Origin: a virus
Lineage: Duplodnaviria > Caudoviricetes
Direction: 5' to 3' (one strand)
IMG/VR virus record: IMGVR_UViG_3300021959_007005
Length of the DNA stretch: 64,000 nt
A program made the translations under genes and the position numbers. Every line of letters begins with the position of its first letter. The first letter of the stretch is position 1. Of the stretch, positions 3,801 to 57,274 are shown piece after piece. The notes under the pieces were generated by a model that saw only the letters and a list, made by a program, of their open reading frames with translations, made no database searches and had not been told where the DNA came from.

Positions 3801-6800
3801 CCCATTCTTATTGTCATACCATCTTCAAAATGAAGTATGTCTTGACTAGCATCAAAAGTTATATTATTATTATAAAAAGGACCAGTACCTTTAAGCACTA
3901 CATCATGGTTGTTAGAATCTAGAGCACCACCTAGTTGTGGTGTTGTGTCATCTGCTAAACTAACCATGCCTCCACTGCTTAATGATGTAAAACTTAAAAC
4001 ACCTGCGCCATTGGTTTGTAGTACTTGTCCGGTTGTGCCATCACTTGAAGGAAGAGTATATGCCTGGCTAATTGTAACGACATTTCCAACAACTTCTAAA
4101 GGCGTGAAATGACTAGAGTCATATGTCTGCAATCGTATGTATTCGCCCCCACTATTAGATTTTATTTCAAATCCACTATTTGCGATATGTGTAATGTGTC
4201 CTGATACGCCAGTTATGCCGGCGTTGAAATTGATAATAGGATTACCGAAGTTGCCAGTACCGTCACCAAGGTTTATGCTAGGACTTCCAGATGCTGGGCC
4301 TGTGGTAATATCAGTAACGCCTGTCAGTGTGCCTGTAACTGCTACGCCAGTTGCGGTCGTTTCTAGCTTTTTAGAGCCTGAATGATATAAGTCTACCGCA
4401 CCAGTAGCACGGAGTGTAATTCTATCAGAATTAGACACTTTCATGTCTACTTCTTTGTTAGATATTATTTGAAAATTTCCAGAACCAGATTGATTATAGG
4501 TAAGGTTTGTTTCATTAATGGTTAAAGCCGAGCCTATTGCCGCGGCGCCTGTAACAGTAATACCCGATGGCGATGTCTTAACCTTTTCATTTCCATTGTG
4601 GTAAAGCTGTACAGCACCGTTTGACCCAAATCTCGCTAAAAACTCGTCTGACGGGCCCCCTGTGTAGACCAAATCAAGGCCGTAAAGACTTGGAATTTCA
4701 ATATCCATGCCAAGGCCGCTAGCGTTAGTAGGGCCAATTATTTTGCCTGAAGCAAAAGTTACATCACCAGTAAACGTGCCGCCTGATGTTGGCATATCGC
4801 CACTAAGTCCAGGAGCCCATTGGCTGCCCCCCCATTTTAAAACATGGCCAGTTGTTGGGGCTACCGGATCTACATTTGATAAATCTCCTAGTGATAAAGC
4901 TAAATTGTTAATTGTAGCACCATTGAAATCTACTGTACCTGAGAATGATGATGAACCATTTGATGAAATATTACCACCGAAACCTGCCGCACCACTTGTA
5001 TTATCAAGTAGAACATTACCGTTAGTATCGTATAGTTTACCTTGGAATGCATTTGCTGTAACTGTAGTTGTTGTAGCAATACGATTAAATGTTACATCGT
5101 CTGTAGTAGAAAGTGCTTGATCAGAAACAACTGCCTGAGAATATTCATACTGATTGTTAAGTGCATTCCATACTAAAGTATCACCGTTTGTCGGATTATT
5201 CAGTCTATCAACATTTGATAAATGCTGTGTATTAGGATAAGCGTTTACCCATTTTGTCCCACTCCATTGTAATGATTGGAATTGCTGTACGCTTGCAATT
5301 GTTGTATCAGTTAGTCCAGAAAGTGTAGTAGATCCACCAGCTGAAATAGATTGGAAGGTAAAGTTTCCGCTACCATCTGTTGTTAATATTTGACCATTTG
5401 TGCCATCACTAATACTTAAATCTGTAAGCACAGCAGGTATGGTAGGTTTATTTGTTAAGTTCGTGTAGTCACCATCAAATAATGCTGTATCACCTGCTAG
5501 TGCTGTTGTACTAGTTGTACCTAATGCCAATGCATCAGTAATTCCATAACCTGCTATTGTAGTTGGCGTGTTAGTTAAAGAACTAAACTTCCCATCAAAT
5601 AATGTTGGTTTGTTTGTTAAATTTGTATAGTCACCATCAAATGCATCTGTAATTCCATACCCTGATATTGTAGTTGGTTTACCAGTAAGACTACCAAATT
5701 GTCCATTAAATAGAGTTGGTAGGTTTGTTAGTGAATTATAATCTCCATCAAACAAACCAGCATTAGTGATTCTTGCATCTACTCTAGCATCTGTATAGTA
5801 AAGGTTGTTTCCTTCGGAAAGGTCTGTTGTAGATTTAGTAGATAGTGCAGAATTGAATCTTGCTTGAGTATAATAAAGATTTGTAGACCCTTCAGAAAGA
5901 TTATCAGTATCTTGCGCGGCTAAGTTTTGTAGATATCTACCGTCCAAACTGACGGTAGATGCAGTTGATGCATCACTTCTAGTAAGTGTTAGAGTTCCAC
6001 TAGCAAAGGTTGCGCTGTCAATTCTAGATAAGTTTGTATCGTCAAAGAGTTGACTAAAATCAACTGTAAAAGATGAAGCATCATCTCTGAGAAATGTTGC
6101 TATACCAGTAGCTCCATCAATTGTACCAGATGTTAATTTTGCTAAATTTGTGTCGTCTAAATATAAACTTAAATCTATGTTTGTTACTGCGCCAGCTTCG
6201 TCTGTATACTTTAGTATATTAGTAGCAAGTGATAAACTAGTATTCGTTTCTGTAAAACTTGTTAAGTAACCTGCTGTGCTATGATCTCCCCACCCATATG
6301 ATGTATCCCAATTGGTAATTTTTGTATTTGTTATAGTACTTGCTGGACTTGCGGTAAATATTGGATCTGTTTCTGACTTTAAATAACCTTCTACTGAGTG
6401 ATCTCCCCACCCATATGATGTATCCCAATTAGTAATTTTTGTATTTGTTACGTTATTTGCCGCATGTGCTGTAAAGATTGGATCTGTTTCTGACTTTAAA
6501 TAACCTTCTACTGAGTGATCTCCCCACCCATATGATGTATCCCAATTGGTAATTTTTGTATTTGTTATAGTACTTGCTGGACTTGCGGTAAATATTGGAT
6601 CTGTTTCAGTAATAACTCCATTGTCTACCCACGTATAATCACTACCATTCCAACTAAGAACATAACCATTAGTTGGGTTACTTTGGTTTAAATGTGAATC
6701 TACATCTGAAGTTGTAAATAATTGAGTTGTTTTAGCATATGGTGTTAAATCTGGCATTGCAATAGTAAATTGTCCAGTTACGCTGTTATATGTTGCAGAA

Positions 6801-7114: not shown

Positions 7115-8275
7115 TTATTCTCCATCAGGTGTTACATAGCCAGTAGCTACATATCCAGCAGTCATATATAGACTACTTTTTTTTTGATTGTCTGGTTGTG
7201 CAGTTATCGCTGTACTAATTGGTTGCAGCTCTTGCGTTTCTCTGTTATCTACAACTGTAGTGTTTTTTTCATTAAAAATATAATCACTAGCATTATATGT
7301 TTTATCTGTCCATGTTTGTTCAGTGATATTATCATATAGCCTATGCCATCTTGATCCACGACGAACAAACATTCTATTAGGAACAAAGTCGTTTCTTATA
7401 AAGTAATCGCCCTCATTAGGTTCTACTGGAAATTGATCACCAGTTGCAATTGTCTCACCGTGGTTATAACTATTGTCCTTGTTAACAATACCACCACTAG
7501 TAGCATGGTCATATCCAAATAAATGGTCAACCATACTTGTACCATTTGGATCAGCAGCGTCAGCGGCTGCAATAATCGCATCACTTATATTATATTCTGC
7601 TTTATATGTACTAACATCATTTTTGAGACTATTAGCATCACTGCTATCGCCAAGTATATCGTAGTATTCTTGACTGTCTGTTAGTGGGCTTAGTTTGACT
7701 CGCCAAATATGCGGATACCAAGTTTGACTAAATCCTTCAGCACCTCTGTTCGCATCGTTAACAACATAATATTTGTTTACTGCGGCTTTACTAGCATTAA
7801 GAAGTAAGTCATCACGTAAATGTGGTAATTCCAAGACATCACCAGGCATCAAACGCCTACCCATTATCTCCACCATATCATTTATATGAAAGGTCATATA
7901 TAATTGATCATTACTGAGAAATAATCCAAACTGTGTTAAATCATAATCATTATCTTGAACATTATACACTCCACGCATATCGAAAATATCTTGATCATAT
8001 TTTCGATCTCTGTTTTCCATAAACAATAAATCTTGTATTTTTGTTTCATTAATTATGCCTTCAACATTGATATATTCACCACTAAGTGGATCAATTTCAC
8101 CGCCACCAATATAATTTGGTTGACTTGGGTCGTCCTTGTTGGGTTGTGCTGCTGGTCCAAGATATTTGTGTACATGTACCCCAGTCCCTCCGATATTAAA
8201 CTGTTCACGGATTGATCGATCCTGAAAGTAAAAATCGTTAGTTTTAGTTGGTTTATATAAGGTCAAACGTGGCAT
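7115..8275 (-). CDS. Virion structural protein, probably neck/head-closure (T4 gp14-like)
   Basis: 386-aa ORF with TAAATA 5 nt upstream of the ATG, next to fibre genes; family assignment from recall only. Confidence 0.5.
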   Translation of the reverse strand: MPRLTLYKPTKTNDFYFQDRSIREQFNIGGTGVHVHKYLGPAAQPNKDDPSQPNYIGGGEIDPLSGEYINVEGIINETKIQDLLFMENRDRKYDQDIFDMRGVYNVQDNDYDLTQFGLFLSNDQLYMTFHINDMVEIMGRRLMPGDVLELPHLRDDLLLNASKAAVNKYYVVNDANRGAEGFSQTWYPHIWRVKLSPLTDSQEYYDILGDSSDANSLKNDVSTYKAEYNISDAIIAAADAADPNGTSMVDHLFGYDHATSGGIVNKDNSYNHGETIATGDQFPVEPNEGDYFIRNDFVPNRMFVRRGSRWHRLYDNITEQTWTDKTYNASDYIFNEKNTTVVDNRETQELQPISTAITAQPDNQKKSSLYMTAGYVATGYVTPDGE

Positions 8276-11561: not shown

Positions 11562-14048
11562 ATGGCCTTAACGTCACCAGGCGTACAAGTATCGGTAGTT
11601 GATGAGAGTGCATATGGTGCACCAGGATCCGGTACTGTACCACTATTAGTTCTAGCTACTAGATCAAACAAAGCAGATCCAACCGGCGGATCGGCAGATA
11701 ATATTGCGGCAAAAACTAAATCCACAGCCGCTGGCGAAGTAGTGAAAGTTACTAGCCAAAGAGAATTAACACAATTTTTTGGAAACCCAACATTTACCAC
11801 AGTTGGCTCAACAGTTTCACAAGGAAGTGAAACAAGTGAATATGGTCTGTTAGCTGCATATAGTTATCTTGGACAAGGAAGCCAAGCATTTGTTGTAAGA
11901 GCAGATATTGATCTTGCACAATTAGAAAATAGTGCAACTGAACCAACAGCGCCATATAATATAGGCAACACAGTGTGGTTAGACACAGACGCTAGTAAGT
12001 ATGGTATCCATCAGTGGAACAGCACAACTAGCAAATGGGAAAACAAAATACCAGCAGTACAGACTAATTATGATGACGCAGATATTGATGGTGACGTTAA
12101 TACACCAAGCGGCGCAAGTGCTGCAACTGACGGAACATTCCTAGTTGTAACAAACGTTGATAACGAAATAGCAAATAGCGCAGGTCGTGGTATGAGTATT
12201 GAATACTTTTACGGCGTAGGCGGCGCATGGGAATCACTAGATTCAGATACTGCTCTAAGCACTGGTGAAGCTGTAACTTATGATGCACACTATAATGCAC
12301 CAAGCTCTCCAGTAGCAAACGATGTTTGGGTTAAAACAACACGCCCAGGCAACGGTTTGGCACTAGCACTAAGCACACACAATGGCACGGCATTTACAAC
12401 AGCTACAGTACAAGGTATTAGTACTACACAAGCTGATGGTGCAGGAGCCATTGGTGATTTTGTAGCACAAGACGGTTCAAGCACAACTGCATTATCCGCA
12501 AGCACAGCTACAGTAGGTGCTTATTTGTTAGACCAACAAGCAAATACCAAAGCTACTGTTGTTATTAGAGAAGTTATAACAGCGGGTGCAGTAGGCGATT
12601 TAACAGCAACTACAGTATTAGGACAAGCTGCAACACCAACTAGAACACTAGCTACAGGTACATATTGGTTTGATAATACAATTGATAAGTTAGATTTGTA
12701 TGTAATTACAGCAGGTGAATTTTTACCAAAGTCAGCAACTTATAGTTCAACTGCTCCAACAGGTGCTTCTCTAAATGATATTTGGGTTGATACATCACTA
12801 GCAGCAGAAAACCAAACTAACGAACGTGCTTATCCACACATCAAAGTTTATAACGGAAGTGCATGGATTTCACATGACAATACAGATCAAACAACTACAA
12901 CAGGCGTATTGTTTGCAGATATTACAGACGCAGCAGGCGATGCTACTAATAGTGGTAATGCTACAGTTATTAGTGGCGGTCCAAACCCAGCAGTGTATCC
13001 AAATGGAATGGTAGCTGTTAATATGGGGCAGAGTAAAAACACAGTTCGAGCATGGAATGGAACTGCTTGGAGAAATGGTGCAAGCAATCATGCAGATGGT
13101 AGCGGACGTTTTGGTAGATATGCCCAACGTGGTGTTATTGCAACTGCAATGCAGGCAGTGGCAGCAGGTGCAGATCTTAGAGATCCAAGTAATGCATTTA
13201 GTTTAATTGCAGCACCTAACTATCCTGAACTAGTTGATGAAATGGTTACACTTAATAGTGATAGAGGCGAAACTGCATTTATTATTGTTGACTCACCAAT
13301 GCGTAAGAGTCCAACAGATGTTATTAATTGGACTAATAATACAGGAAGTGCATCAGAAAACGGTGAAGATGGTCTGGTAACTAATAATACATATAGTGCA
13401 GTTTATTACCCATCTGGCAGTTCTACATTGCCATCAACTGGTGCATCAGTAATGGTACCACCAAGTCATATGGCATTATATACATTTGCATATAACGATA
13501 ATATTAGTTTCCAATGGTTTGCACCAGCTGGACTAACACGTGGTGTGGTACAAAATGCTACTAGTGTTGGGCACTTGACAACTGAAGGCGAATTTAAAGC
13601 AATTAGCCTTACACAAGGACAGCGTGATGCAATGTATACAGCAAAGCTAAATCCAATCACAACTTTCCCTGGACAAGGCACAATAGTATTTGGACAGAAA
13701 ACTTTACATGCTGGAACTAGTGCATTAGATAGAGTTAATGTTGCTAGATTAGTTGCATACTTGCGTGACAGATTTGATGAACTAGGACGTCCGTTCTTGT
13801 TTGAGATTAATGATGAACAAACAAGAGCAAGAGCAAAGATTGCATTTGAAAGATTCCTCGCAGACATTTTAAGCAGACGTGGACTTACAGATTTTGCAGT
13901 TGTTTGTGATACAAGTAATAACACACCAGCAAGAATTGATCGTAATGAATTTTACGTTGATGTTGCAATTGAACCTTCAAAAGCAGCAGAATTCATCTAT
14001 ATTCCAATTAGATTAGTTAATACTGGTACATTAGCCACTACTAACTAA
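11562..14048 (+). CDS. Tail sheath protein (gp18-like)
   Basis: MALTSPGVQVSVVDES N-terminus; WFAPAGLTRG, LNPITTFPGQG..FGQKT, ALDRVNVARL, VDVAIEPSKAAEFIYIPI. Confidence 0.97.
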   Translation: MALTSPGVQVSVVDESAYGAPGSGTVPLLVLATRSNKADPTGGSADNIAAKTKSTAAGEVVKVTSQRELTQFFGNPTFTTVGSTVSQGSETSEYGLLAAYSYLGQGSQAFVVRADIDLAQLENSATEPTAPYNIGNTVWLDTDASKYGIHQWNSTTSKWENKIPAVQTNYDDADIDGDVNTPSGASAATDGTFLVVTNVDNEIANSAGRGMSIEYFYGVGGAWESLDSDTALSTGEAVTYDAHYNAPSSPVANDVWVKTTRPGNGLALALSTHNGTAFTTATVQGISTTQADGAGAIGDFVAQDGSSTTALSASTATVGAYLLDQQANTKATVVIREVITAGAVGDLTATTVLGQAATPTRTLATGTYWFDNTIDKLDLYVITAGEFLPKSATYSSTAPTGASLNDIWVDTSLAAENQTNERAYPHIKVYNGSAWISHDNTDQTTTTGVLFADITDAAGDATNSGNATVISGGPNPAVYPNGMVAVNMGQSKNTVRAWNGTAWRNGASNHADGSGRFGRYAQRGVIATAMQAVAAGADLRDPSNAFSLIAAPNYPELVDEMVTLNSDRGETAFIIVDSPMRKSPTDVINWTNNTGSASENGEDGLVTNNTYSAVYYPSGSSTLPSTGASVMVPPSHMALYTFAYNDNISFQWFAPAGLTRGVVQNATSVGHLTTEGEFKAISLTQGQRDAMYTAKLNPITTFPGQGTIVFGQKTLHAGTSALDRVNVARLVAYLRDRFDELGRPFLFEINDEQTRARAKIAFERFLADILSRRGLTDFAVVCDTSNNTPARIDRNEFYVDVAIEPSKAAEFIYIPIRLVNTGTLATTN

Positions 14049-14097: not shown

Positions 14098-14144
14098 GAG
14101 CAGGTTTTAATAAATACTAACAGCCGGTATAAAGGAGAAATTCG

Positions 14145-14750
14145 ATGGCAGTTATCACAACACTTGGTGTACCAGACAATGCAGGTAGCACCACAACAAT
14201 AATGCCCAAACTACAATATCGTTTTAGAGCGACATTCATTGGGGCAGCTTTTAGCAGTACACCTACACGTAGTGTTATTAGCGCAACTAGGCCTTCGTTA
14301 ACACACGAAGATGTAATTATTGAATCCTACAATAGTAGAATTTATGCAGCAGGAAAACACACATGGGATATGGTTACTGTAACCTTCCGTGATGATGTTG
14401 ATAGTGTAGTAATTAAAGAAATGAACAAACAATTAAATATGCAAGTCGATCATGCAAACCAAAGTGCAAGCCGTTCAGGAAGTGCTTATAAATTCCAATT
14501 TATACTTGAATCATTAGATGGTGCAAGCCCAACACCAGGAGTGTTAGACAAATTTGAATTAGCAGGTTGCTATATCCAAAATATTAATTATGGCGATATG
14601 GCTTATGGTAGTAGTGAACAAGTACAAGTAACAGTAAGTATTCGTTATGACAATGCAGAAATTTATGATGCAGCAGGTAATGCAACACTAACTGGAGAAA
14701 CACTTGATCAAACATTAAGTAATGCATCAGGTGCTGGTACACAGGGTTAA
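14145..14750 (+). CDS. Tail tube protein (gp19-like)
   Basis: Follows the sheath; PKLQYRFR, YAAGKHTWD, TVSIRYDNA; TAAATA at 14111 and AAGGAG RBS. Confidence 0.9.
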   Translation: MAVITTLGVPDNAGSTTTIMPKLQYRFRATFIGAAFSSTPTRSVISATRPSLTHEDVIIESYNSRIYAAGKHTWDMVTVTFRDDVDSVVIKEMNKQLNMQVDHANQSASRSGSAYKFQFILESLDGASPTPGVLDKFELAGCYIQNINYGDMAYGSSEQVQVTVSIRYDNAEIYDAAGNATLTGETLDQTLSNASGAGTQG

Positions 14751-14758
14751 TATAGAAT

Positions 14759-15793
14759 ATGGGATTAACTTCTAATACTGGCTTTTATAATGCTGCGGCA
14801 GATCATTTTGGTTCAGACGACCCTGTTACCTTAAGATATCCAAGGCAGAAGTTTAACTTTAGTATAGAGTTTATACTAAACGAAAATATCCCATTAATTG
14901 ACGATAGTTATGGTAGGTCTTTTACGTTTCACAGAGTGTTAGGTATAAGTCTACCAGACTTTGACTACAGTGTTCAGAGACTTAATCAATATAACAGACC
15001 TAGATATGTCCCTACTAGGTTAGAAACAGGACCAGCTGGTATTACCTTTTATGATACAAAAGATAATCAATTTTTACATTTAATGATGGCGTATGCTGGG
15101 CATTATTTTCATGGTCATCAGCTTGACCCTAGGAATTTTAGTGGAAATAATATAATACAAGAACAATTTAGCACTGGTGCAGGTCAACCATTTGGTGCTG
15201 AATCAATTACGCATGACACTAGATTTATGTTTGAAGAAATAAGAGTGCATCAAAAAGATACAGCACAGGGTGGAAAAACAACTACAATGTATAATTGTAT
15301 GATAAACAATGTACAGTACGATAGATTAGATTATAGTGACAGTCAACCAGTGATGTGGCAGGTAGCAATACAACCAGAACATGTTAACTTTGATCCATTA
15401 GGGGGTTCAGCACCTGAAAATAGTGTTAATGTTCAACAGGCAGCAAGACAACAAGCAGAAACTGGTAATACAACTGCTAGCACAATTGGTAATAGATCAG
15501 GGACAAATAAACAAACTCAATCAGATACAACTATAGCACAAACGTATACACCTCCACAAATTGGAGGAACTACTGTTGGTGATACTCTTAGATCACTACA
15601 AGAACAGCAAGGTGGACTTGTACAAGTCCCTACTATTACAAATATTGGTAAGCCAGTTAATATGCCAACCATTGGTGATGGTACAACAGCAGACGTTGAC
15701 CCAGGTATGGTTATACCAAATGACTCTGATAATAGTGAAACAGCAAAAAAATTAAATAATGGCACAATAACATTTGCAGCTGGACCACAGTAA
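14759..15793 (+). CDS. Tail-tube-fold baseplate protein (gp48/gp54-like)
   Basis: PRQKFNF..SLPDFD..LNQYNR..ITFYD tube-like N-terminal half; low-complexity C-terminal tail. Confidence 0.6.
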   Translation: MGLTSNTGFYNAAADHFGSDDPVTLRYPRQKFNFSIEFILNENIPLIDDSYGRSFTFHRVLGISLPDFDYSVQRLNQYNRPRYVPTRLETGPAGITFYDTKDNQFLHLMMAYAGHYFHGHQLDPRNFSGNNIIQEQFSTGAGQPFGAESITHDTRFMFEEIRVHQKDTAQGGKTTTMYNCMINNVQYDRLDYSDSQPVMWQVAIQPEHVNFDPLGGSAPENSVNVQQAARQQAETGNTTASTIGNRSGTNKQTQSDTTIAQTYTPPQIGGTTVGDTLRSLQEQQGGLVQVPTITNIGKPVNMPTIGDGTTADVDPGMVIPNDSDNSETAKKLNNGTITFAAGPQ

Positions 15794-15804
15794 ATAAATA
15801 CAAC

Positions 15805-16506
15805 ATGGAAGATGATATTATATTAGCAGAGCTCAACGACGAAGAGCTTGTACTGCAAATGGGTGACGACCTCTACGATGGACTCAAGGAAGAAATTGAA
15901 GAAGGTACTAATATTCTATTAGAACGTGGATGGGAACCATATCGGGTATTAACAGAATCTTTAGTTGCTGGTATGACTATTGTGGGCATAGACTTCCGTG
16001 ATGGTATATTGTTTGTGCCTGAAGTGCTACTAGCCGCAAACGCAATGAAAGGTGGTATGGCAATACTCAAACCATTGCTGGCTGAAACAGGTGCACCACA
16101 AGTTGGCAAGATGGTTATTGGCACAGTCAAAGGTGACATACACGACATTGGTAAAAACCTAGTAGGTATGATGATGGAAGGCGCCGGCTTTGAAGTTGTT
16201 GACTTAGGTATCAACAACTCAGTTGATGCATACCTCGATGCAATAGACGAACATGAGCCAGACATATTAGGAATGAGTGCATTGCTTACAACTACTATGC
16301 CTTATATGAAAGTTGTTATTGATACAATGACTGAGAAAGGTATACGTGACAACTATACAGTATTAGTTGGAGGAGCTCCTTTAAATGAAGAGTTCGGTAA
16401 AGCAATAGGTGCTGATGCTTACTGTCGAGATGCAGCCGTAGCAGTAGAAACTGCCAAAGTCTTTATGGATAGAAAACATAATCAACAAAACCTAGTTAGA
16501 AACTAG
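15805..16506 (+). CDS. Stand-alone cobalamin-binding (corrinoid) protein; cap plus B12-binding domains of a split methionine synthase/methyltransferase
   Basis: FVPEVLLAANAMK cap motif; GTVKGDIHDIGKNLV (DxHxxG base-off His-on motif), GMSALLTTT, VGGAP. Confidence 0.95.
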   Translation: MEDDIILAELNDEELVLQMGDDLYDGLKEEIEEGTNILLERGWEPYRVLTESLVAGMTIVGIDFRDGILFVPEVLLAANAMKGGMAILKPLLAETGAPQVGKMVIGTVKGDIHDIGKNLVGMMMEGAGFEVVDLGINNSVDAYLDAIDEHEPDILGMSALLTTTMPYMKVVIDTMTEKGIRDNYTVLVGGAPLNEEFGKAIGADAYCRDAAVAVETAKVFMDRKHNQQNLVRN

Positions 16507-16527
16507 TACATAATAAATACTTACATA

Positions 16528-16971
16528 ATGCCTAGAAAAACACATTTTCAACAAGGAAACTACCAAGTAAAGAATCCTAATAAGTACATAGGCAAAGGTG
16601 CGCCTAGGTATAGAAGTGGTTGGGAATTAAAATTCATGAGATTGTTAGACGGGCATCCTTATGTTAAAGCATGGGCTAGTGAAAGTCATAGAATACCATA
16701 TAGGCATCCAGCAACTGGTAAATCGACAACATATGTACCAGATTTTTTCATTGTTTATGAAGATAAAAACAAACAACAGAGAGCTGAGTTTATAGAAATA
16801 AAGCCTGCAGGACAAACAATGAAATTTGCTAAAAGTCAAGCACAGAAAATTGCAGCTATAGTAAACGAAGCTAAATGGCAAGCGGCTACTGCTTTTGCTA
16901 AACGTCAAGGAGTAGGGTTTAGAGTACTAACTGAAAATGAATTATTCAATAACCCTAAAAAGAGAAATTGA
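16528..16971 (+). CDS. Head completion nuclease (T4 gp4 / TnsA-like)
   Basis: YRSGWELKFM, WASE..IPY.HP..YVPDF, EIKP motifs; TAAATA at 16514. Confidence 0.88.
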   Translation: MPRKTHFQQGNYQVKNPNKYIGKGAPRYRSGWELKFMRLLDGHPYVKAWASESHRIPYRHPATGKSTTYVPDFFIVYEDKNKQQRAEFIEIKPAGQTMKFAKSQAQKIAAIVNEAKWQAATAFAKRQGVGFRVLTENELFNNPKKRN

Positions 16972-19879: not shown

Positions 19880-21427
19880 ATGTCAGTAGATACAAATTTA
19901 ATAAAAAAACCATATCAAAAGGAAAAATTTACAACCGAGCAATTCCAAGAACTTGCTCGTTGTGCTGTTGATCCAGAATACTTTATGTTAGAACACTGCT
20001 ATATTCAACATCCCACTAAGGGACGTATGAAATTTTCATTGTATCCATATCAAAAACGTTTAGTAGAAGTATATCATCAAAATCGTTATAGTATTGCTAT
20101 GTTACCCAGACAAACAGGTAAATCAACATGTGCGGCAGGATACTTGCTATGGTATGCAATGTTTAATCCAGACCAAACTATTCTAATTGCAGCACACAAG
20201 TACAGTGGCGCTCAAGAGATCATGCAACGTATACGGTTTGCATATGAAACATTACCTAATCATATACGTGCAGGTGTTACTGCATATAACAAAGGAAGTT
20301 TAGAGTTTGATAATGGCAGTCGTATTATTGCACAAGCTACAACAGAAAATACAGGACGTGGTTTATCATTATCATTAGTATACTTAGACGAGTTTGCATT
20401 TGTGCCACCCCGTATTGCCAAAGAGTTTTGGACAGCACTGAGTCCAACACTTAGTACAGGTGGTAAATGTATGATCACAAGTACACCAAACCAGGATAAT
20501 GATCAATTTGCACAAATTTGGAAAGCAGCAAATAAAACTATTGATCAATATGGTAATGAAACAAAAGTAGGAGTTAATGGATTTAAACATATTCTAGTTG
20601 ATTGGAGAGAACATCCGGATAGAGATCAAGAATGGGCTGACGAAGAAGCAGCTAAAATTGGTGAAGAAAGATTTAGACGAGAACACGGATGTGAATTTAT
20701 TAGTGCTGACGAAACACTTATTAGTGGACTAATATTGCCAACACTAGAGTCTAAAGAAGTATACAAACGTACAGGTCAAGTACGCTGGTATAAAAATTTA
20801 CAAAAGGGAAAAACTTATATTGCAGGGCTTGATCCAAGTTTAGGTACTGGTGGTGATAATGCAGCAATACAAGTTTTTGAACTACCAGGAATGAATCAAG
20901 TAGCTGAATGGATGCACAACAAGACGCCAATCACGGAACAGATAAGAATACTCAGACAAATACTGAAGGAAATAGAACAAGAAGTAACCGATACTGAAAT
21001 ATATTGGAGTGTGGAAAATAACACGCTGGGTGAAGCTGCCCTTGTGGTCATAGCGGAAATGGGTGAAGAAAACATTCCTGGTACATTAATTAGTCAGCCA
21101 AAAAGCAGTAATAGAGGACACAGAAAAGGATTTACAACAACTAATAAAAGTAAACTTGAGGCATGTAGTAGATTAAAGAACTGGATTGAAACTGGAAAAA
21201 TGGTGGTTAACAGCGAAGCGTTATTACAAGAGCTTAAAACGTTTATTGCTAGGGGATCAAGTTTTGCTGCTAAATCTAGCGAAACAGATGATTTAGTTAT
21301 GGCAAGTGTACTAGTTGTCCGTATAGCTCAACAGGTTGCACAGTATGACGAAGTAACTTATGAAGAGCTTAAAGATAGTTTTGATGAAGATGGAACTGAT
21401 GCACCAATGCCAATTATGGTCTTTTAG
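19880..21427 (+). CDS. Terminase large subunit (gp17-like)
   Basis: Walker A PRQTGKS, Walker B LDEFAF, ITSTPN coupling motif, RNase H-like GLDPSLGTGGD and TDDLVMA. Confidence 0.97.
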   Translation: MSVDTNLIKKPYQKEKFTTEQFQELARCAVDPEYFMLEHCYIQHPTKGRMKFSLYPYQKRLVEVYHQNRYSIAMLPRQTGKSTCAAGYLLWYAMFNPDQTILIAAHKYSGAQEIMQRIRFAYETLPNHIRAGVTAYNKGSLEFDNGSRIIAQATTENTGRGLSLSLVYLDEFAFVPPRIAKEFWTALSPTLSTGGKCMITSTPNQDNDQFAQIWKAANKTIDQYGNETKVGVNGFKHILVDWREHPDRDQEWADEEAAKIGEERFRREHGCEFISADETLISGLILPTLESKEVYKRTGQVRWYKNLQKGKTYIAGLDPSLGTGGDNAAIQVFELPGMNQVAEWMHNKTPITEQIRILRQILKEIEQEVTDTEIYWSVENNTLGEAALVVIAEMGEENIPGTLISQPKSSNRGHRKGFTTTNKSKLEACSRLKNWIETGKMVVNSEALLQELKTFIARGSSFAAKSSETDDLVMASVLVVRIAQQVAQYDEVTYEELKDSFDEDGTDAPMPIMVF

Positions 21428-27214: not shown

Positions 27215-28078
27215 ATGGGTAAACTATGGATCTTTGGTGATAGTTTCACAAACGCACCATTAGAAAAAAGAATGTTAGTAAATGACTTGGTGTTTACAGA
27301 AGAAAGTAAAAAAGACTTTTCAATGACTTGGCAATCTTTATTATGTCAAAAACTTGGATTGTCTGAAATCTGTAATCACGGTATGCCAGGGATAGGATTA
27401 GATTATATTCAATGGAGATATGTTCAAGAAAGAACCGATATTGATAAAGAAAATGACGTTATTATAATTGGACACACAATGCCTGCTCGTAGATGGTTTA
27501 TACAAAAATCGCCAGAGCTTAGTAACTTTATTAATTTTATCAAAACAGATAGCACACTAAACATAGAATATCTTAAAAAAATGACATTACGTCATGATCA
27601 TGAAACAAGACAAAAGTCTCTTTATCAAGCAGAAGCGGCTAGGCAATATGTTATTAATATAGCTGATCCAGTAATGGAGGAATTGTACGGAGTATCTGTA
27701 TTAGCGTATTTTAATATGCAACAGCATGAGGGGTATCAAATAATTAATATCCCAATTTATGAAAATAGTGAAGTAACTAAATGGAATAATAATTTTAATT
27801 CAATTGGAAATTTAAATTCAGTTAGTGCTAATGAATGGCAATCAGAAAAAAGAGATGAACAAAGTCTTTGGACAGCATTTATGGATATTTGCGGTGGAGC
27901 TGACGGCAGGGTTAACCATCTAATAATGGATAACCATACTATACTAGCTGATAAATTATTTAAAACCATAACAGAAAATGAAACTTTAGACTTGACAACA
28001 GGGTTTATTTCTAATATAGTTAATGCAACAAGTTACGACAGTAAATATGATGTTTATAAAATGAAACAGGTCCCTTAG
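27215..28078 (+). CDS. SGNH/GDSL hydrolase-like protein
   Basis: IFGDSF block I, NHGMPGIG block II, NHL..NH near the C-terminus; stop codon lies inside tRNA-Arg. Confidence 0.6.
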   Translation: MGKLWIFGDSFTNAPLEKRMLVNDLVFTEESKKDFSMTWQSLLCQKLGLSEICNHGMPGIGLDYIQWRYVQERTDIDKENDVIIIGHTMPARRWFIQKSPELSNFINFIKTDSTLNIEYLKKMTLRHDHETRQKSLYQAEAARQYVINIADPVMEELYGVSVLAYFNMQQHEGYQIINIPIYENSEVTKWNNNFNSIGNLNSVSANEWQSEKRDEQSLWTAFMDICGGADGRVNHLIMDNHTILADKLFKTITENETLDLTTGFISNIVNATSYDSKYDVYKMKQVP

Positions 28079-28145
28079 CTCAGCTGGATAGAGCAAGTGC
28101 CTTCTAAGCACTAGGTCAGAGGTTCGAATCCTCTAGGGTCCGCCA
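28069..28145 (+). tRNA. tRNA-Arg(UCU)
   Basis: Cloverleaf; anticodon arm AGTGC-CTTCTAA-GCACT; GGTTCGAATCC; encoded CCA; U3:U70 mismatch. Confidence 0.93.
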
Positions 28146-28153
28146 GAATATGT

Positions 28154-28230
28154 ACTCCTCTAGCTCAATTGGTTAGAGCAGAACGCTCATAACGTTTTGG
28201 TTACAGGTTCGAGTCCTGTGGGGAGTACCA
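28154..28230 (+). tRNA. tRNA with CAU anticodon (Ile2-lysidine type or elongator Met)
   Basis: ACTCCTC/GGGGAGT acceptor stem, CTCATAA loop, encoded CCA; paired 1-72 so not initiator. Confidence 0.9.
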
Positions 28231-28235
28231 ATTAT

Positions 28236-28309
28236 AAGGGTGTGGTGAAATGGTATCACGCTGGTCTCCAAAACCAGAAGCAGGAGTTCGATTCTCCTCA
28301 CCTTTGCCA
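28236..28309 (+). tRNA. tRNA-Trp(CCA)
   Basis: CTGGT-CTCCAAA-ACCAG arm, G73, encoded CCA. Confidence 0.93.
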
Positions 28310-28318
28310 AAGTTTATG

Positions 28319-28490
28319 GTGCAGAGAACACCGCAGGAATAAACTGATAAGAGTAAACTGCAACGTTCTTTGTACAGTAGGAAAATCGTCGGAAGACTAG
28401 ATAGTTAAAATCTATGCATAGTCATATCTAGCTTCGACAGGCGTTGGAAATTAATAGGAGTAATTACCTAGTGACCTTCCTGAATCCTAC
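28319..28490 (+). ncRNA. Candidate structured RNA of unknown class inside the tRNA array
   Basis: Stems 28319-29/28365-75, 28377-82/28485-90, 28397-403/28425-31 and TAGG/CCTA; no convincing ORF. Confidence 0.5.
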
Positions 28491-28499
28491 AAGTGTTAA

Positions 28500-28589
28500 G
28501 GTGAGGTGGCTGAGTGGCCGAAAGCGCCGGATTACTAATCCGGAGAACGTGCAAGCGTTCCGTGGGTTCGAATCCCACCCTCACTGCCA
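28500..28589 (+). tRNA. tRNA-Ser(ACU), type II with long variable arm
   Basis: CCGGA-TTACTAA-TCCGG anticodon arm, GAACG/CGTTC variable arm, G73, encoded CCA. Confidence 0.92.
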
Positions 28590-28592
28590 GAT

Positions 28593-28676
28593 GCTCGCAT
28601 GATGGAATGGTAGACATAACAGACTTAAAATCTGTGGCCGTAAGGCGTCCCGGTTCGAGTCCGGGTGCGAGTACCA
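28593..28676 (+). tRNA. tRNA-Leu(UAA)
   Basis: ACAGA-CTTAAAA-TCTGT arm, long variable arm, A73, encoded CCA. Confidence 0.95.
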
Positions 28677-28701
28677 AATTAAACCACGGATAAGTATTTT
28701 T

Positions 28702-28776
28702 ATGAAAACTTGTCCAGATTGTAAAACAGAATTAGGTCATAACGATTTTTGTCCTAATTGCAGAGTAAAACGATAA
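28702..28776 (+). CDS. 24-aa zinc-ribbon microprotein
   Basis: MKTCPDCKTELGHNDFCPNCRVKR; TAAGTA promoter-like motif just upstream. Confidence 0.55.
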   Translation: MKTCPDCKTELGHNDFCPNCRVKR

Positions 28777-28777
28777 C

Positions 28778-28853
28778 GCCGCAATAGCTCAGTTGGTAGA
28801 GCAACTGATTTGTAATCAGTAGGTCCCGAGTTCGAATCTTGGTTGCGGCACCA
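28778..28853 (+). tRNA. tRNA-Thr(UGU)
   Basis: GCCGCAA/TTGCGGC acceptor stem, ACTGA-TTTGTAA-TCAGT arm, encoded CCA. Confidence 0.95.
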
Positions 28854-51787: not shown

Positions 51788-52447
51788 ATGGCAGATACAC
51801 GAATTAGTAAAATACAAGTACGACAAGGAAATTATTCAGACTTACCAGTTTTAGATGCAGGAGAGTTTGGGTATGCAAAAGATACTCGTCAACTTTATAT
51901 TGGTAATGACTCAGTGTCAATTGCTACTGGTAATGGTGTTTTAACTGCATTTACTGTACCAATTAGTTTAGGCAACCCAAGTTTAATAACAGTATATGTT
52001 GATGGAACCGCAATTTCAGCTGGAGATTATTCTGTTTCAGGAACTACCTTGACTTTTAATAGTGCACCAACAGGTGTAATTACTGCTAGATTTAATAATG
52101 AACTAGAAATATATAATAACGGTGTAAGACCAACGTCAGTATCGTTAGCAGCTAATGCTAGTGCCGCTGAAACTGGATTTCAGGTTGACACTACTACATA
52201 TAATGTAGTGATTATGAATTATACATTGGAAAGTACTAATGGCGTCAGAGTTGGTGAATTGCGTTTCGCAACAGATGTCAGTGCAAGTACTAGCACAATC
52301 GACGATGTTATGACGGAAACTGCCGCAGTAGGCATTACGTTTAGTGTAGACATTGCAACTGCAAATACTATGAAACTAAAATACACTGATGCTGATAATT
52401 TAATTTCAACCTTTAAATATACGTATAAACTTTGGAACAGCAATTAA
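51788..52447 (+). CDS. Tail-fibre/baseplate-associated protein with an Mtd-N-like N-terminus
   Basis: KIQVRQG..DLP.L..GEFGYAKDTRQLYIGN; TAAATA at 51763. Confidence 0.65.
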   Translation: MADTRISKIQVRQGNYSDLPVLDAGEFGYAKDTRQLYIGNDSVSIATGNGVLTAFTVPISLGNPSLITVYVDGTAISAGDYSVSGTTLTFNSAPTGVITARFNNELEIYNNGVRPTSVSLAANASAAETGFQVDTTTYNVVIMNYTLESTNGVRVGELRFATDVSASTSTIDDVMTETAAVGITFSVDIATANTMKLKYTDADNLISTFKYTYKLWNSN

Positions 52448-52884
52448 ACCATAGAGCTTGGTTCGAATCCCCAAAAACTCGACTGAGTATGTGGAGACAA
52501 TTTAGGCAAAGTCTAGATACAAGCGATACTCATGAAGTATGTAATACAGTAATAACTTGGTGGAAAACTGCTCCTATTAGTAGTATGACCATCGACCCAG
52601 TAAACTGGTCAGCTTGGCCAACTCCCTGGGAGATGTTACATAGTGGAAATTTTTGTGAAAATAGTTTAGCATTAGGTATGAGTTATACGATTTATTATGC
52701 TAATCCAAATATTAAAAATGAACTATTGTACATAACTGACAGAAAAAATAGTAAGGAAATATTATGTTCGTTGATAGGGGATAAACACTTGCTTAACTAC
52801 GAACACGGCGTAATAAGTAGATTACCAGCCAGTGAAATTGATATAACAAATCAAATTAGTGTTGATGATATAGTTAATAGATGA
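52432..52884 (+). CDS. Conserved hypothetical protein
   Basis: WPTPWEML..FC..ALGM.YT motif. Confidence 0.55.
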   Translation: MEQQLNHRAWFESPKTRLSMWRQFRQSLDTSDTHEVCNTVITWWKTAPISSMTIDPVNWSAWPTPWEMLHSGNFCENSLALGMSYTIYYANPNIKNELLYITDRKNSKEILCSLIGDKHLLNYEHGVISRLPASEIDITNQISVDDIVNR

Positions 52885-52934
52885 CGGCCAGTCAGGTAAG
52901 AATAATATATAAATGATAGATAGGATAGGAAAAC

Positions 52935-55244
52935 ATGAGTGAAATTCAAGTAACAAAACGAGACGGCACTAAAGACAAACTAGATTTAGAAAAATTACAC
53001 AAAGTAGTATTTCATGCCTGTGAAGGAATTAATAGCGTAAGTGCAAGCGAAGTAGAAATTAAAAGTCATTTACAATTTTACAATGGTATTACTAGCAGTG
53101 AAATTCAAGAAACTTTAATTAAAAGCGCCGCCGATTTGATTACTGAAGATACACCAAATTACCAATGGGTTGCTGGCAGACTTATAGTTTATCATTTACG
53201 TAAAATGGTATATGGACAATATGATCCGTGGCCATTAATTGATATTGTAAAACATAATACTGATAGTGGATTTTATGACAGTGAATTAATAACCAATTAT
53301 TCAGAATCTGAATGGCAAGAATTGGAAGATCATATTAAACATGATCGTGATGAAACAATGACATACGCTGCAATGGAGCAATGGAGAGGTAAATACCTAG
53401 TACAAAATCGTGTTACTGGTGTTATTCATGAAACTCCACAAGTGGCGTATATGTTAATTGCAGCAACTTTATTCGCAGACTATCCTGTGGAAACGAGAAT
53501 GAAATGGGTAAAAGGTTATTATGATAGCGTCTCAACTTTTGACATTAGTTTGCCTACTCCTGTTATGGCTGGCGTCAGAACTCCGCAGAGACAGTTCTCG
53601 AGCTGCGTCCTTATTGAAACTGGCGATAGTCTTGATAGCATCAATGCTACTACTAGCAGTATTGTTAAGTATGTTAGTCAAAAAGCAGGGATTGGTATCG
53701 GAGCAGGAAGTATACGAGCTCTCGGATCCCCCATACGTAAGGGTGACGCCTATCATACAGGAGTAGTGCCCTTCTACAAAATGTTTCAAAGTGCTACAAG
53801 ATCTTGTTCACAAGGTGGTGTACGAAACGGCGCTGCAACCTTATATTACCCTATATGGCATTATGAAGTAGAAGATTTACTTGTGCTAAAGAATAACAAA
53901 GGTACAGAAGAAAATCGAGTGCGTCATATGGACTATGGTGTGCAGTTTAGTAAATTGTTTTACGAAAGACTAATCAGCAACGGAAATATTACTTTGTTTA
54001 GTCCACATGATGTTCCAGGATTGTATGATGCTTTTTTTGCTGACCAAGATAAATTTCGTGAACTATATGAAGCAGCAGAACGTAAAACTAGCATCCGTAA
54101 AAAAGTAGTAAGCGCAACTGAACTATTCAGTAGTTTTATGGAAGAGCGTAAAAACACAGGACGCATTTACTTACAAAACGTAGATAACTCAAATGATCAT
54201 AGTAGTTTTAAAGCAGATATTGCACCAGTAAAACAAAGTAATCTATGTTGTGAAATTAATTTACCTACTAAGCCACTTAACGACTTCAATGACGAAGAAG
54301 GTGAGATTGCACTGTGTACACTGAGTGCAATTAATTGGGGCAATATGCGTAGTCCAGCAGATTTTGAAAAAGCATGTACATATGCAGTACGTGGTCTTGA
54401 TGCACTTTTAACATATCAGAATTATCCAGTTAAAGCAGCGGAACGAGCTACAATGGGAAGACGACCATTAGGCGTAGGTATTATTAACCTTGCGTATTGG
54501 ATGGCCAAGAATGATATGACTTATTCCAATCCAGACTTGGTTAAAATTGATGAGTATGCAGAAGCATGGAGTTACTATCTAATCAAAGCAAGTGCAGACC
54601 TAGCAGCAGAAAAAGGTGCATGTTTGTGGAATGACCAAACAAAATATAGTGATGGATTACTTCCCATTGACACATACAAAAGAGATGTTGATGATTTATG
54701 TGCGCCAGTAGAGCGTATGGACTGGGCAGGATTGCGTGAACAATTAAAAGAAACAGGCATTCGTAATAGTACACTGATGGCACTCATGCCCGCTGAAACA
54801 TCAGCACAAATTAGTAATGCTACAAACGGTATTGAACCGCCACGTAGCCTAGTAAGTGTCAAGCAAAGTAAACACGGTGTATTACGGCAAGTTGTTCCTG
54901 GCATTCATAAACTGAAAAACAAATATGAACTACTATGGGATCAGTCTAGTCCTGAAGGTTATATGAGTATCATGGCAATACTACAAAAGTATATTGATCA
55001 AGGAATTAGTGTTAATACAAGTTATAATCCTACATTTTTTGATGATGAGAAAATACCAATGAGTACAATGTTACAGCATTTAATGATATTTTACAAATAT
55101 GGTGGTAAACAATTATATTATTTCAATACTTACGATGGTCAAGGTGAAATAGATATTGACAAATTAAATGAATCTAGTAATATAACTATATCTAGTGAGC
55201 TAGAAATATTAGAAGAAGAAGACTGCGAAAGCTGTGTACTGTAA
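52935..55244 (+). CDS. nrdA: Ribonucleotide reductase class Ia alpha subunit
   Basis: N-terminal ATP cone, PTPVMAG, FSSCVL, SNLCCEI, MPAETSAQ, C-terminal CESCVL. Confidence 0.98.
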   Translation: MSEIQVTKRDGTKDKLDLEKLHKVVFHACEGINSVSASEVEIKSHLQFYNGITSSEIQETLIKSAADLITEDTPNYQWVAGRLIVYHLRKMVYGQYDPWPLIDIVKHNTDSGFYDSELITNYSESEWQELEDHIKHDRDETMTYAAMEQWRGKYLVQNRVTGVIHETPQVAYMLIAATLFADYPVETRMKWVKGYYDSVSTFDISLPTPVMAGVRTPQRQFSSCVLIETGDSLDSINATTSSIVKYVSQKAGIGIGAGSIRALGSPIRKGDAYHTGVVPFYKMFQSATRSCSQGGVRNGAATLYYPIWHYEVEDLLVLKNNKGTEENRVRHMDYGVQFSKLFYERLISNGNITLFSPHDVPGLYDAFFADQDKFRELYEAAERKTSIRKKVVSATELFSSFMEERKNTGRIYLQNVDNSNDHSSFKADIAPVKQSNLCCEINLPTKPLNDFNDEEGEIALCTLSAINWGNMRSPADFEKACTYAVRGLDALLTYQNYPVKAAERATMGRRPLGVGIINLAYWMAKNDMTYSNPDLVKIDEYAEAWSYYLIKASADLAAEKGACLWNDQTKYSDGLLPIDTYKRDVDDLCAPVERMDWAGLREQLKETGIRNSTLMALMPAETSAQISNATNGIEPPRSLVSVKQSKHGVLRQVVPGIHKLKNKYELLWDQSSPEGYMSIMAILQKYIDQGISVNTSYNPTFFDDEKIPMSTMLQHLMIFYKYGGKQLYYFNTYDGQGEIDIDKLNESSNITISSELEILEEEDCESCVL

Positions 55245-55259
55245 TAAGAGAGAGAATTA

Positions 55260-56387
55260 ATGAGCGTACTAAATCAAAATCAACGAAATAAACACATGGA
55301 AAGTCTGATGTTTCTCGACCCAAACGGTGGGGTAGATATTCAGCGTTATGATACATTAAAGTATCGTCAGTTTGATAAATTAACTGACAAGCAGTTGGGA
55401 TTCTTTTGGCGTCCTGAAGAAGTGGATGTAACTAAGGACAGTAAAGACTTTAAAGCATTAACTGATCATGAACAGCATATTTTTAGTAGTAACTTAAAAC
55501 GGCAGATTCTATTAGATAGTGTACAAGGCCGAGCACCAGCTGACAGTTTTAATCCACTTGTTAGTTTACCTGAATTAGAGAATTGGGTAACAACATGGAC
55601 GTTCAATGAAACGATCCACAGTCGCAGTTACACACATATTATTCGTAATATCTACACTAATCCAAGTATCATCTTTGATGAAATGATGGACATTGCACCC
55701 ATTATGGATTGTGCAGGCGATATTAGTAAGCACTACGATGATCTTATTGAAATGGGTATGTGGTATAACCTATTAGGTGAAGGAACACATACAGTTAACG
55801 GTAAGAAAATTACAGTGGACAAATATGAACTTAAAAAACTAATCTGGAAAGCTATGATGAGTGTAAACATACTTGAAGGCGTTCGCTTTTATGTATCGTT
55901 TGCATGTAGTTGGGCATTTGCTGAACTTAAAAAGATGGAAGGCAATGCTAAGATTATTAAACTTATTTGTAGAGATGAGAATGTACACTTGGGTAGTACC
56001 CAAACGTTACTTAAACTGATGCCCAAAGATGATCCTGACTTTGCTCGTATCCAACAAGAAACTCAGGACGAAATGGTACAACTATTTGTAGATGCAGTAG
56101 ACCAAGAAAAGGCTTGGGCAGATTACTTGTTTAAAGATGGATCGATGATTGGTCTTAATGCACAACTTTTAGCTGAGTACGTAGAATGGATTGCAAACAA
56201 GCGTATGATTGCTGTTGGTTTACCGAGTCCGTATAAAGGGAGTAGTAACCCATTACCATGGACACAGAAATGGATTGCTGGTGCAGAAGTACAAGTGGCA
56301 CCACAAGAAACAGAAATTAGTAGCTATGTAATCGGCGGTACTAAACAAGATGTAAATGGAAGTACGTTTGCGGGTATGAAATTGTGA
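55260..56387 (+). CDS. nrdB: Ribonucleotide reductase class Ia beta subunit
   Basis: FFWRPEE, ETIHSRSY, EGVRFY, RDENVH, APQETEISSY. Confidence 0.98.
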   Translation: MSVLNQNQRNKHMESLMFLDPNGGVDIQRYDTLKYRQFDKLTDKQLGFFWRPEEVDVTKDSKDFKALTDHEQHIFSSNLKRQILLDSVQGRAPADSFNPLVSLPELENWVTTWTFNETIHSRSYTHIIRNIYTNPSIIFDEMMDIAPIMDCAGDISKHYDDLIEMGMWYNLLGEGTHTVNGKKITVDKYELKKLIWKAMMSVNILEGVRFYVSFACSWAFAELKKMEGNAKIIKLICRDENVHLGSTQTLLKLMPKDDPDFARIQQETQDEMVQLFVDAVDQEKAWADYLFKDGSMIGLNAQLLAEYVEWIANKRMIAVGLPSPYKGSSNPLPWTQKWIAGAEVQVAPQETEISSYVIGGTKQDVNGSTFAGMKL

Positions 56388-56974: not shown

Positions 56975-57274
56975 ATGACAAATTATGTACACCGAAATAA
57001 TGACGCACGAGCTTGTGGTGCTAGAACAGTAGCTACAAGTCCAAATGTTAGAGTAAATTACGAGCCAATAAGCACACAAGGTAACCCTAATACCCATGGT
57101 GGCGGTGCATTAAAAGCCACGGAAACATTAGGAAAAGTTAGGGCAAATAACATTTCAGTTATAATCCTTAATGATCCAGCTAGTCCAGACTCATTATGTC
57201 CGACGGCTGGCGGCGCTCATTGTGGACCAAAAGCATCTAGCGCAAGTCCAAATGTTAGAGCAGGGAGTGGTTAA
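56975..57274 (+). CDS. PAAR-like spike tip protein (T4 gp5.4-like)
   Basis: HRNND.R.CGA..V.VN..H..; C/H zinc ligands; TAAATA at 56964. Confidence 0.8.
   Translation: MTNYVHRNNDARACGARTVATSPNVRVNYEPISTQGNPNTHGGGALKATETLGKVRANNISVIILNDPASPDSLCPTAGGAHCGPKASSASPNVRAGSG

Follow-up and report, generated by a model that had tools for sequence, protein, structure and literature searches.

Fitness genetics have shown that proteins of the PGA1_c13370/60/50/40 type form a three-part split methionine synthase, whose reactivation requires a RamA-like protein and DUF1638, and whose corrinoid subunit in Phaeobacter inhibens is PGA1_c13350, termed MtbC (Price et al. 2018, PMC5764234). The corrinoid protein was later renamed MtgC (SPO2160 in Ruegeria pomeroyi), and in R. 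pomeroyi it is essential for methionine synthesis, together with MtgD and MtgE, and also for glycine betaine demethylation, together with MtgB and MtgD; viruses are not mentioned in that work (Mausz et al. 2025, PMC12478193). Here we describe a member of this family in a bacteriophage. The IMG/VR virus record IMGVR_UViG_3300021959_007005, a 64,000-nucleotide stretch of Caudoviricetes DNA that we refer to as the window, carries an mtgC-like gene for a stand-alone corrinoid (cobalamin- or B12-binding) protein, which is, judged by its sequence, a near-ortholog of the genetically validated bacterial MtgC family, the hub of the MtgBCDE system found in Alphaproteobacteria of the Rhodobacterales/Hyphomicrobiales type. 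Our literature searches found nothing on phage mtgC, on corrinoid-protein auxiliary genes or on B12-binding domains in jumbo phages. The protein family and phage auxiliary genes as a kind are known; what is new is a phage-only clade of the gene across distant myovirus groups, a hub subunit that travels without its partners, and the exact anatomy of a cassette and its empty site.

The protein is a complete cap plus cobalamin-binding protein with an intact DxHxxG motif, as the first-pass annotation of the window had read it, and a Pfam search found no domain beyond these two modules, and no output or DNA-binding domain, in its 233 residues. The motif reads DIHDIG, in which His113 is the expected lower axial cobalt ligand; it is invariant in an alignment of 40 phage-clade and 80 bacterial sequences and aligns with the same motif in 1Y80 and 7XCN. 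The SALL and VGGA (GG) motifs are also intact and align with the solved corrinoid protein 1Y80 and with MetH 1BMT. By sequence, 1Y80, a corrinoid protein of Moorella, ranks first among solved structures (E 2e-56, residues 20-219), followed by MttC (7XCN), 4JGI and the MetH cobalamin module (1BMT). An AlphaFold model from a 26-sequence alignment, with a mean predicted local distance difference test score of 73, contains four cap helices (residues 12-25, 28-40, 45-65 and 71-95) and a five-stranded Rossmann domain, and a Foldseek search with this model ranked MttC, 4JGI, the MetH Cob domains, MtaC and MMCP first. The protein is not a classical MetH, scoring 146 bits against the TIGR02082 cut-off of 1011 and lacking the homocysteine-binding, pterin-binding and reactivation domains. 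Against the anaerobe-type NCBIfam MtgC models NF047996 and NF047995 it scores 198 and 170 bits (cut-offs 370 and 310), and a roseobacter ortholog falls short of both models in the same way, in agreement with the phylogenetic distinctness of roseobacter MtgC described by Mausz et al. (PMC12478193).

A protein search returned 8000 matches, of which the named ones at 85-90% identity come from Rhodobacteraceae and are annotated 'corrinoid protein' or 'methionine synthase'; the closest named genera include Pelagimonas, Yoonia and Tropicibacter (up to 90%) as well as Aliiroseovarius, and a genome scan placed the orthologs of Mesorhizobium and other Rhizobiales at 83-85%. The Aliisedimentitalea ortholog (locus L087), 85% identical to the phage protein, is neighboured by genes for a homocysteine S-methyltransferase (PF02574), an oppositely oriented radical S-adenosylmethionine (SAM) protein and DUF1638, an order that matches the PGA1_c13370/60/50/40 arrangement of Price et al. 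2018 (PMC5764234). These identities and this gene order bear out the earlier proposal of a stand-alone corrinoid protein of the Rhodobacteraceae split-synthase type. The phage protein shares with Rhodobacteraceae MtgC its length, two-domain build, cobalamin motifs and level of purifying selection, at 83-90% amino acid identity over Rhodobacteraceae and Mesorhizobium, a likeness to SPO2160 and PGA1_c13350 that is drawn through other Rhodobacteraceae members and not through direct comparison with those two proteins. It differs in having no MtgE, DUF1638 or radical-SAM neighbours, in falling in a separate clade that holds no named bacteria and carries four near-fixed substitutions, and in having low-GC codons and late-promoter-type control in place of a bacterial operon. 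The MetH Cob module (1BMT, 8SSC), MttC (7XCN), MtaC (2I2X), Desulfitobacterium MtgC and Moorella 1Y80 have the same fold and His-on motif, but the MetH Cob module and the anaerobic methyltransferase corrinoid proteins are only 29-54% identical to the phage protein. JGI names call these phage proteins 'methionine synthase', which would mislead surveys of auxiliary metabolic genes.

In a maximum likelihood tree of 127 sequences, one clade (support 100/99) unites all 12 copies with a phage context and 28 short metagenome proteins, and contains no named bacterium. Contexts fetched in each of its subclades were all phage, from PA5oct-like jumbo phages to a distant T4-like phage, and two 90%-identity clusters within it hold more than 100 member sequences each. 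The branch that leads to the clade arises between Rhodobacterales and the groups of Rhizobiales type, and because the next split unites it with the Rhizobiales-type group, the clade is not nested inside the roseobacters. Synonymous sites are saturated between phage copies and bacteria; within the clade the synonymous divergence (dS) is 0.2-2.1 and the ratio of nonsynonymous to synonymous divergence (dN/dS) is 0.04-0.10, and between bacteria dN/dS is 0.06-0.12. Over 120 sequences, 140 of the 233 positions, the whole cap included, are at least 98% invariant, and no more than four substitutions (F20G, A52S, A62I and R99Q) are both near-fixed and specific to phages. Such cap-wide invariance would be expected if all partner surfaces must be kept, and not the B12 pocket alone. 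The gene has a GC content at third codon positions (GC3) of 0.31, where genes of the window average 0.25 ± 0.08 (z 0.7, rank 8 of 58), so that it is no outlier and the reported excess of C-ending codons is weak. The phage-only clade, the saturated synonymous sites and the almost fully phage-like composition together argue for long residence in phages under full functional constraint. The ultimate source of the gene is an alphaproteobacterial MtgC, with Rhodobacteraceae closest by identity; of the earlier proposal of a capture from a roseobacter-type host, the bacterial origin thus stands, whereas direct capture finds no support, given the clade, the saturation and the ordinary GC3. We also considered the clade as an artefact of low GC content, and rejected this because the low-GC bacterial copy L063 falls outside it. 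L063 (WTKA01000145.1, labelled as a Hyphomicrobiales metagenome-assembled genome) is a bacterial-type contig of GC 0.40-0.41, on which mtgC is followed by DUF1638, and may derive from an unusually AT-rich alphaproteobacterium.

In the window the gene lies in the late structural block, between a tail-tube paralog (tube2) and a gp4-like head-closure gene. The first-pass annotation had correctly named a head-completion gene on the right, and the neighbour on the left that it took for a tube-like baseplate gene is the tube paralog. The window terminase (TerL) shares 56% identity with its counterpart in Pseudomonas phage PA5oct, 55% with the one in Sinorhizobium phage Phosso and 50% with the one in Agrobacterium phage Atu_ph07, which makes the window phage a marine member of the PA5oct/Atu_ph07-like jumbo-myovirus group, and the modules of PA5oct follow one another in the same way (sheath, tube, tube paralog, small structural protein, head closure ... 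TerL) without the B12 gene. At the nucleotide level, the 11-kb block had no megablast match among GenBank phages, and no cultured phage in the GenBank phage collection was found to carry the gene by tblastn with the protein, whose only matches were gut contigs without annotation (at most 48% identity) and phage records contaminated with bacterial metH. The gene recurs at 96-100% identity and in the same place on independent IMG/VR contigs (L002, L013 and G001), and since the tube2-B12 gene-gp4 junctions are found on the independent metagenome contigs L002 and L013, the segment is not an assembly chimera. A host-type gene thus sits among sheath, tube, head-closure and TerL genes and is under purifying selection in phages, as an auxiliary metabolic gene would be.

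Other low-GC IMG/VR contigs carry the gene at ~90% amino acid and 80-83% nucleotide identity with different neighbours. We considered whether the low-GC contigs L004-L010 could be roseobacter DNA, and hence a recent host donor, and rejected this on account of the T4-type terminase in G002 and G003 (146 and 155 kb, ~40% complete) and the synteny of G003 with the window phage, in which TerL is 59% identical and many proteins of the terminase-to-helicase region are 35-75% identical in conserved order. The B12 gene of G003 lies ~48 kb from TerL. SAM synthetase (MetK) genes occur in G003 (52264-53340) and L114 (3831-4919), 75% identical to each other, 4 kb from the B12 gene in L114 and elsewhere in the genome in G003. 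In L113 (2576-4627) and L114 (5945-7996), the B12 gene is immediately preceded by a gene for a 683-residue CHASE2 plus guanylate/adenylate cyclase; it is unusual for a phage to encode a cyclic-nucleotide cyclase that has a sensor domain of the extracellular type. In L115 the context comprises ClpX, IF3 and S21. A gene of ~192 codons always follows the B12 gene in the G002/G003-type jumbo phages (67-96% identity between loci), has only faint alpha/beta-hydrolase matches (PGAP1, Abhydrolase_5) and is absent from the window and G001; its product may be a functional partner of the corrinoid protein. L111 is a T4-like phage whose UvsX and helicase are only 24-26% identical to those of the window phage, and its gene order is gp43, heme oxygenase, bilin reductase, B12 gene, a 219-codon gene, gp59, gp32, UvsX and gp41. 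In this string (L111 6558-9359; also L112, L011, L012 and L014), heme oxygenase, a small open reading frame (ORF) and bilin reductase (PF05996) are followed by the B12 gene at the next base, and the conserved 219-codon gene stands between the B12 gene and gp59, gp32 and UvsX.

A search with the gp4-like gene gave 376 related loci, and the best 80 of them served to survey the site occupied in the window. In about 75 of these 80, no gene stands between the tube paralog and gp4, which are 19-264 nucleotides apart, and only in the window type and in G001 does a B12 gene lie between them. In L121, whose flanks are 96-98.8% identical to the window at the nucleotide level, the site is empty, and removal of the cassette interval from the window recreates the L121 tube2/gp4 junction exactly (Table 1). 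This exact empty site shows that the gene came to its position as a small cassette by recombination at the promoter repeat, which accounts for the copy of the box in front of both mtgC and gp4. The donor of the cassette was most likely another phage. In G001 (locus L003), the closest relative among the phage records searched, the first 10 nucleotides of the B12 ORF are followed by a 339-codon ORF (4896-5915) with no Pfam, NCBIfam or PHROG match, a cyclase remnant (5935-6000) and a B12 allele that differs from the window copy at 6% of nucleotides; the remnant comprises ~65 nucleotides of the 3' end of a CHASE2-guanylate-cyclase gene, as in L113. We rejected G001 as the ancestral state, from which the window type would have arisen by deletion, because the start of the B12 ORF is kept in front of the 339-codon ORF, so that the extra 1.1 kb is a secondary insertion or an allele replacement. 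The order of these pieces indicates a second recombination with the cyclase-B12 locus of another phage.

Promoter-flanked mobile genes known as PeSL cassettes have reportedly been described in T4-type phages. The present cassette resembles them in that one accessory gene is placed between conserved genes via repeated promoters and brings its own promoter, and differs in that the repeat is a 9-bp late-type box and not an early promoter with a stem-loop. Its exact empty site and promoter-repeat junctions make it a clean example of single-gene shuffling in T4-like and jumbo phages, and the window-type and L121-type phages form a natural pair with and without the cassette.

Table 1. Features of the mtgC-like locus and its surroundings; coordinates refer to the window unless a locus is given.
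Feature	Coordinates	Strand	Basis or remark
mtgC-like gene (stand-alone corrinoid/cobalamin-binding protein, 233 aa)	15805..16506	+	ORF call, PF02607 + PF02310
B12-binding cap, four-helix bundle, residues 21-89	15865..16071	+	PF02607, E 2.3e-15
Rossmann-type B12-binding domain, residues 102-209	16108..16431	+	PF02310, E 5.2e-26
DxHxxG motif (D111-I-H113-D-I-G116)	16135..16152	+	read from sequence
Left copy of 9-bp direct repeat AATAAATAC, overlapping the tube2 stop codon and ending 3 nt before the mtgC ATG	15793..15801	+	
Inserted cassette, 719 bp: mtgC ORF with 3 nt on its left and 14 nt on its right, the latter containing the right repeat	15802..16520	+	empty site in L121
Right copy of AATAAATAC, late-promoter-like motif of the gp4-like gene	16512..16520	+	
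Tail-tube paralog (tube2), 344 aa, left flank of insertion site	14759..15793	+	phrog_13438, phrog_4542
gp4-like head-closure gene, 147 aa, right flank of insertion site	16528..16971	+	phrog_218, PF08722 TnsA-like N
Tail sheath	11562-14048		
Tail tube	14145-14750		
TerL	19880-21427		
Six tRNA genes (Arg-TCT, Met-CAT, Trp-CCA, Ser-ACT, Leu-TAA, Thr-TGT)	28069-28853		
Class Ia ribonucleotide reductase, NrdA (ATP cone) + NrdB	52935-56387		74% identical to G003 copies
~192-codon gene downstream of the B12 gene	L006 6701-7279; L004 6695-7267; L114 8684-9271; L115 2857-3435		

The repeat contains a putative expression signal. The sequence ATAAATAC (15794-15801) ends 3 nucleotides before the mtgC start codon, with no Shine-Dalgarno sequence, so that the TAAATA-type motif and the placement in the late structural block under a late-type signal of its own were both rightly recognised in the first pass. 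The window contains 13 copies of ATAAATA on the + strand and two on the - strand, with about 10 of the + copies at most 45 nucleotides upstream of a start codon, and the 9-mer AATAAATAC is found elsewhere at 14109 (before the tube gene) and 56962 (before the ORF at 56975), always on the + strand and just upstream of a gene. The ATAAATA core resembles the T4 late box TATAAATA, and an exact TATAAATA box precedes the B12 gene in other phage lineages. There is no terminator between tube2, the B12 gene and gp4, Sigma-70-like promoters are no commoner than expected by chance, and neither a cobalamin riboswitch nor any other Rfam family was found near the gene. Genes at which ATAAATA ends 3-8 nucleotides before the ATG, with no Shine-Dalgarno sequence, lie in the window at 7115-8275 (- strand), 9588, 15805, 16528 and 56975, a class that would imply leaderless or near-leaderless late mRNAs.

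Partner genes were sought with the Pfam models PF02574 for MtgE, PF00809 for MtgD, PF06253 for MtgB, PF14574 for RamA and PF07796 for DUF1638, and with the Aliisedimentitalea partner proteins, in the window and in relatives that are 6-42% complete. The Pfam models had no match in the phage records G001-G005, and tblastn of the window, G001, G003 and the other phage loci was negative at E ≤ 1, the sole match being DUF1638 in the bacterial contig L063; the earlier statement that the window holds no partner methyltransferase is thereby confirmed. A phage radical-SAM gene near the group B copies was considered as a gene of the PGA1_c13360 type and rejected, as tblastn gave no match at E ≤ 1. With no phage-encoded partner found, the partners must come from the host. 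The genome of Aliisedimentitalea scapharcae (G007) encodes one RamA, one MtgD-type pterin protein and 21 MttB-family (PF06253) paralogs, from which it follows that the hub protein serves many enzymes there; the ratio of 21 MttB paralogs to a single RamA-like gene suggests that in such hosts competition for one MtgC hub may be heavy.

We put a probability of roughly 60% on the gene being an auxiliary metabolic gene, expressed late, whose product extends the corrinoid-hub capacity of the host system and keeps up the supply of methionine and SAM. The phage late-transcription machinery would start at the ATAAATAC box late in infection and produce a leaderless or near-leaderless mRNA. The apoprotein would load host cobalamin in the base-off/His-on state, with His113 of DIHDIG as the ligand, and would dock with host proteins, since the phage encodes no partner enzymes. 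It is predicted to bind cobalamin and to shuttle methyl groups, which would be received from methyl-tetrahydrofolate via MtgD, or from glycine betaine and other quaternary amines via MttB-family MtgB enzymes, and handed to homocysteine on MtgE to give methionine; once oxidised, the phage hub would be re-reduced by host RamA and DUF1638. The extra hub would keep methionine/SAM regeneration going once host gene expression has collapsed, at a time when SAM demand is probably high, given that relatives carry SAM synthetase. Binding to host partners, an effect on flux and late timing are what we infer from this arrangement. The reading is favoured by a constraint equal to that of the bacterial orthologs, cap included, and by the SAM synthetase genes of relatives.

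Several points weigh against this reading. The cassette is dispensable, as the near-identical phage L121 has none at the site, and in other lineages the gene has neighbours unrelated to methionine (heme oxygenase and bilin reductase, the CHASE2-cyclase, the alpha/beta-hydrolase-like gene). Late timing would be unusual for a metabolic gene and is deduced from the motif. A partner gene may lie elsewhere in the phage genome, given the completeness of the relatives searched. Finally, we infer both the identity of the host and its possession of MtgB, MtgD and MtgE, and SAR11, for one, lacks the whole Mtg system (Mausz et al. 2025, PMC12478193).

The alternative that fares best, although we think it unlikely, is that the protein takes scarce cobalamin from the host and stores it or hands it over, perhaps as methylcobalamin, to a B12 enzyme of the phage itself, such as a class B radical-SAM methylase, outside the host methionine synthase. 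This would fit the lack of a phage-encoded methyltransferase partner in the window, G001-G005 and the other phage loci, and also the class Ia ribonucleotide reductase of the phage, an enzyme type that is independent of B12, so that B12 freed from host uses could be redirected. However, a store would need the B12 pocket alone, yet the cap and the remaining surface are as conserved as in bacteria. Moreover, each of the records G001-G005 encodes a single PF02310 protein, which leaves no class B enzyme to accompany the gene in these relatives; class B radical-SAM enzymes carry a B12 domain of their own, and to our knowledge no corrinoid-protein donor has been described for them.

The remaining explanations are less likely. 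The phage protein could be a competitive decoy that titrates host MtgB, MtgD, MtgE, RamA or cobalamin and so redirects or blocks host methyl metabolism, for example betaine catabolism, so that osmolyte or one-carbon units are saved for the phage. That only the hub subunit is carried, and that four substitutions are near-fixed and phage-specific, could be read in this way, but the catalytic and cobalamin motifs are all intact, dN/dS equals that of working bacterial orthologs and no loss of surface is seen, and we therefore hold a decoy to be improbable.

Still fainter is the prospect that the protein uses B12 to sense or regulate, as CarH, AerR or photocobilins do, and works with the bilin genes or the CHASE2-cyclase that neighbour the gene in other lineages. 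The gene does abut bilin reductase and heme oxygenase in L111, L112 and L011 and follows the cyclase in L113 and L114, with the remnant in G001, and the fold search also matched B12 photoreceptor domains and photocobilins. These matches are weak, however, at 17-23% identity, and come after corrinoid proteins and MetH in the ranking; the protein scores 22 bits against the NCBIfam CarH cut-off of 400, has no output domain and no DNA-binding, SCHIC or bilin-binding module, and is ~90% identical to metabolic MtgC, and neither type of neighbour is present in the window. On an equally speculative footing, the corrinoid protein could form a tetrapyrrole module with the products of the bilin/heme-oxygenase genes, the cyclase or the 192- or 219-codon genes, sensing or exploiting B12, and perhaps light, to time or tune the infection. 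Such a module might conceivably be the phage equivalent of B12/bilin photoreceptors, with a metabolic carrier protein as its raw material, a notion to which we attach the same slight weight. Least credible of all is a neutral passenger (a selfish or hitch-hiking insert) or a virion cargo taking B12 to the next cell, for which the presence/absence polymorphism between near-identical phages and the location between virion genes might speak, but the former is countered by strong purifying selection over deep phage divergence and the latter by an N-terminus that is the same as in bacterial orthologs, with no added targeting leader, and by the position of the gene outside virion genes in most lineages, where it sits among metabolic or replication genes, so that the virion packaging floated in the first-pass annotation found no support.

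The cobS and cobT genes of cyanophages and cobaviruses and the B12-dependent class II ribonucleotide reductases likewise touch the cobalamin economy of marine hosts, but these are biosynthesis-type or catalytic, whereas phage MtgC would be a non-catalytic carrier that acts only via host enzymes. In the surface ocean, vitamin B12, methionine/SAM and glycine betaine serve as central currencies, and recognition of the MtgBCDE system, which connects the three, dates only from 2018-2025. If the auxiliary role is correct, viral infection would reprogramme B12-dependent methyl flow in abundant heterotrophs, the gene being present in many marine metagenomes, and this would be a clear case of a phage with only the non-catalytic carrier of a multi-enzyme system. 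Carriage of the carrier alone would then suggest that this subunit is what limits the system or is its most labile component.

Elsewhere in the window, a 143-codon ORF with a TTG start (187-618, + strand) has a GC3 of 0.73, against a genome mean of 0.25, and is 74% conserved in G001; the frame may be spurious, or the gene may be foreign in composition.

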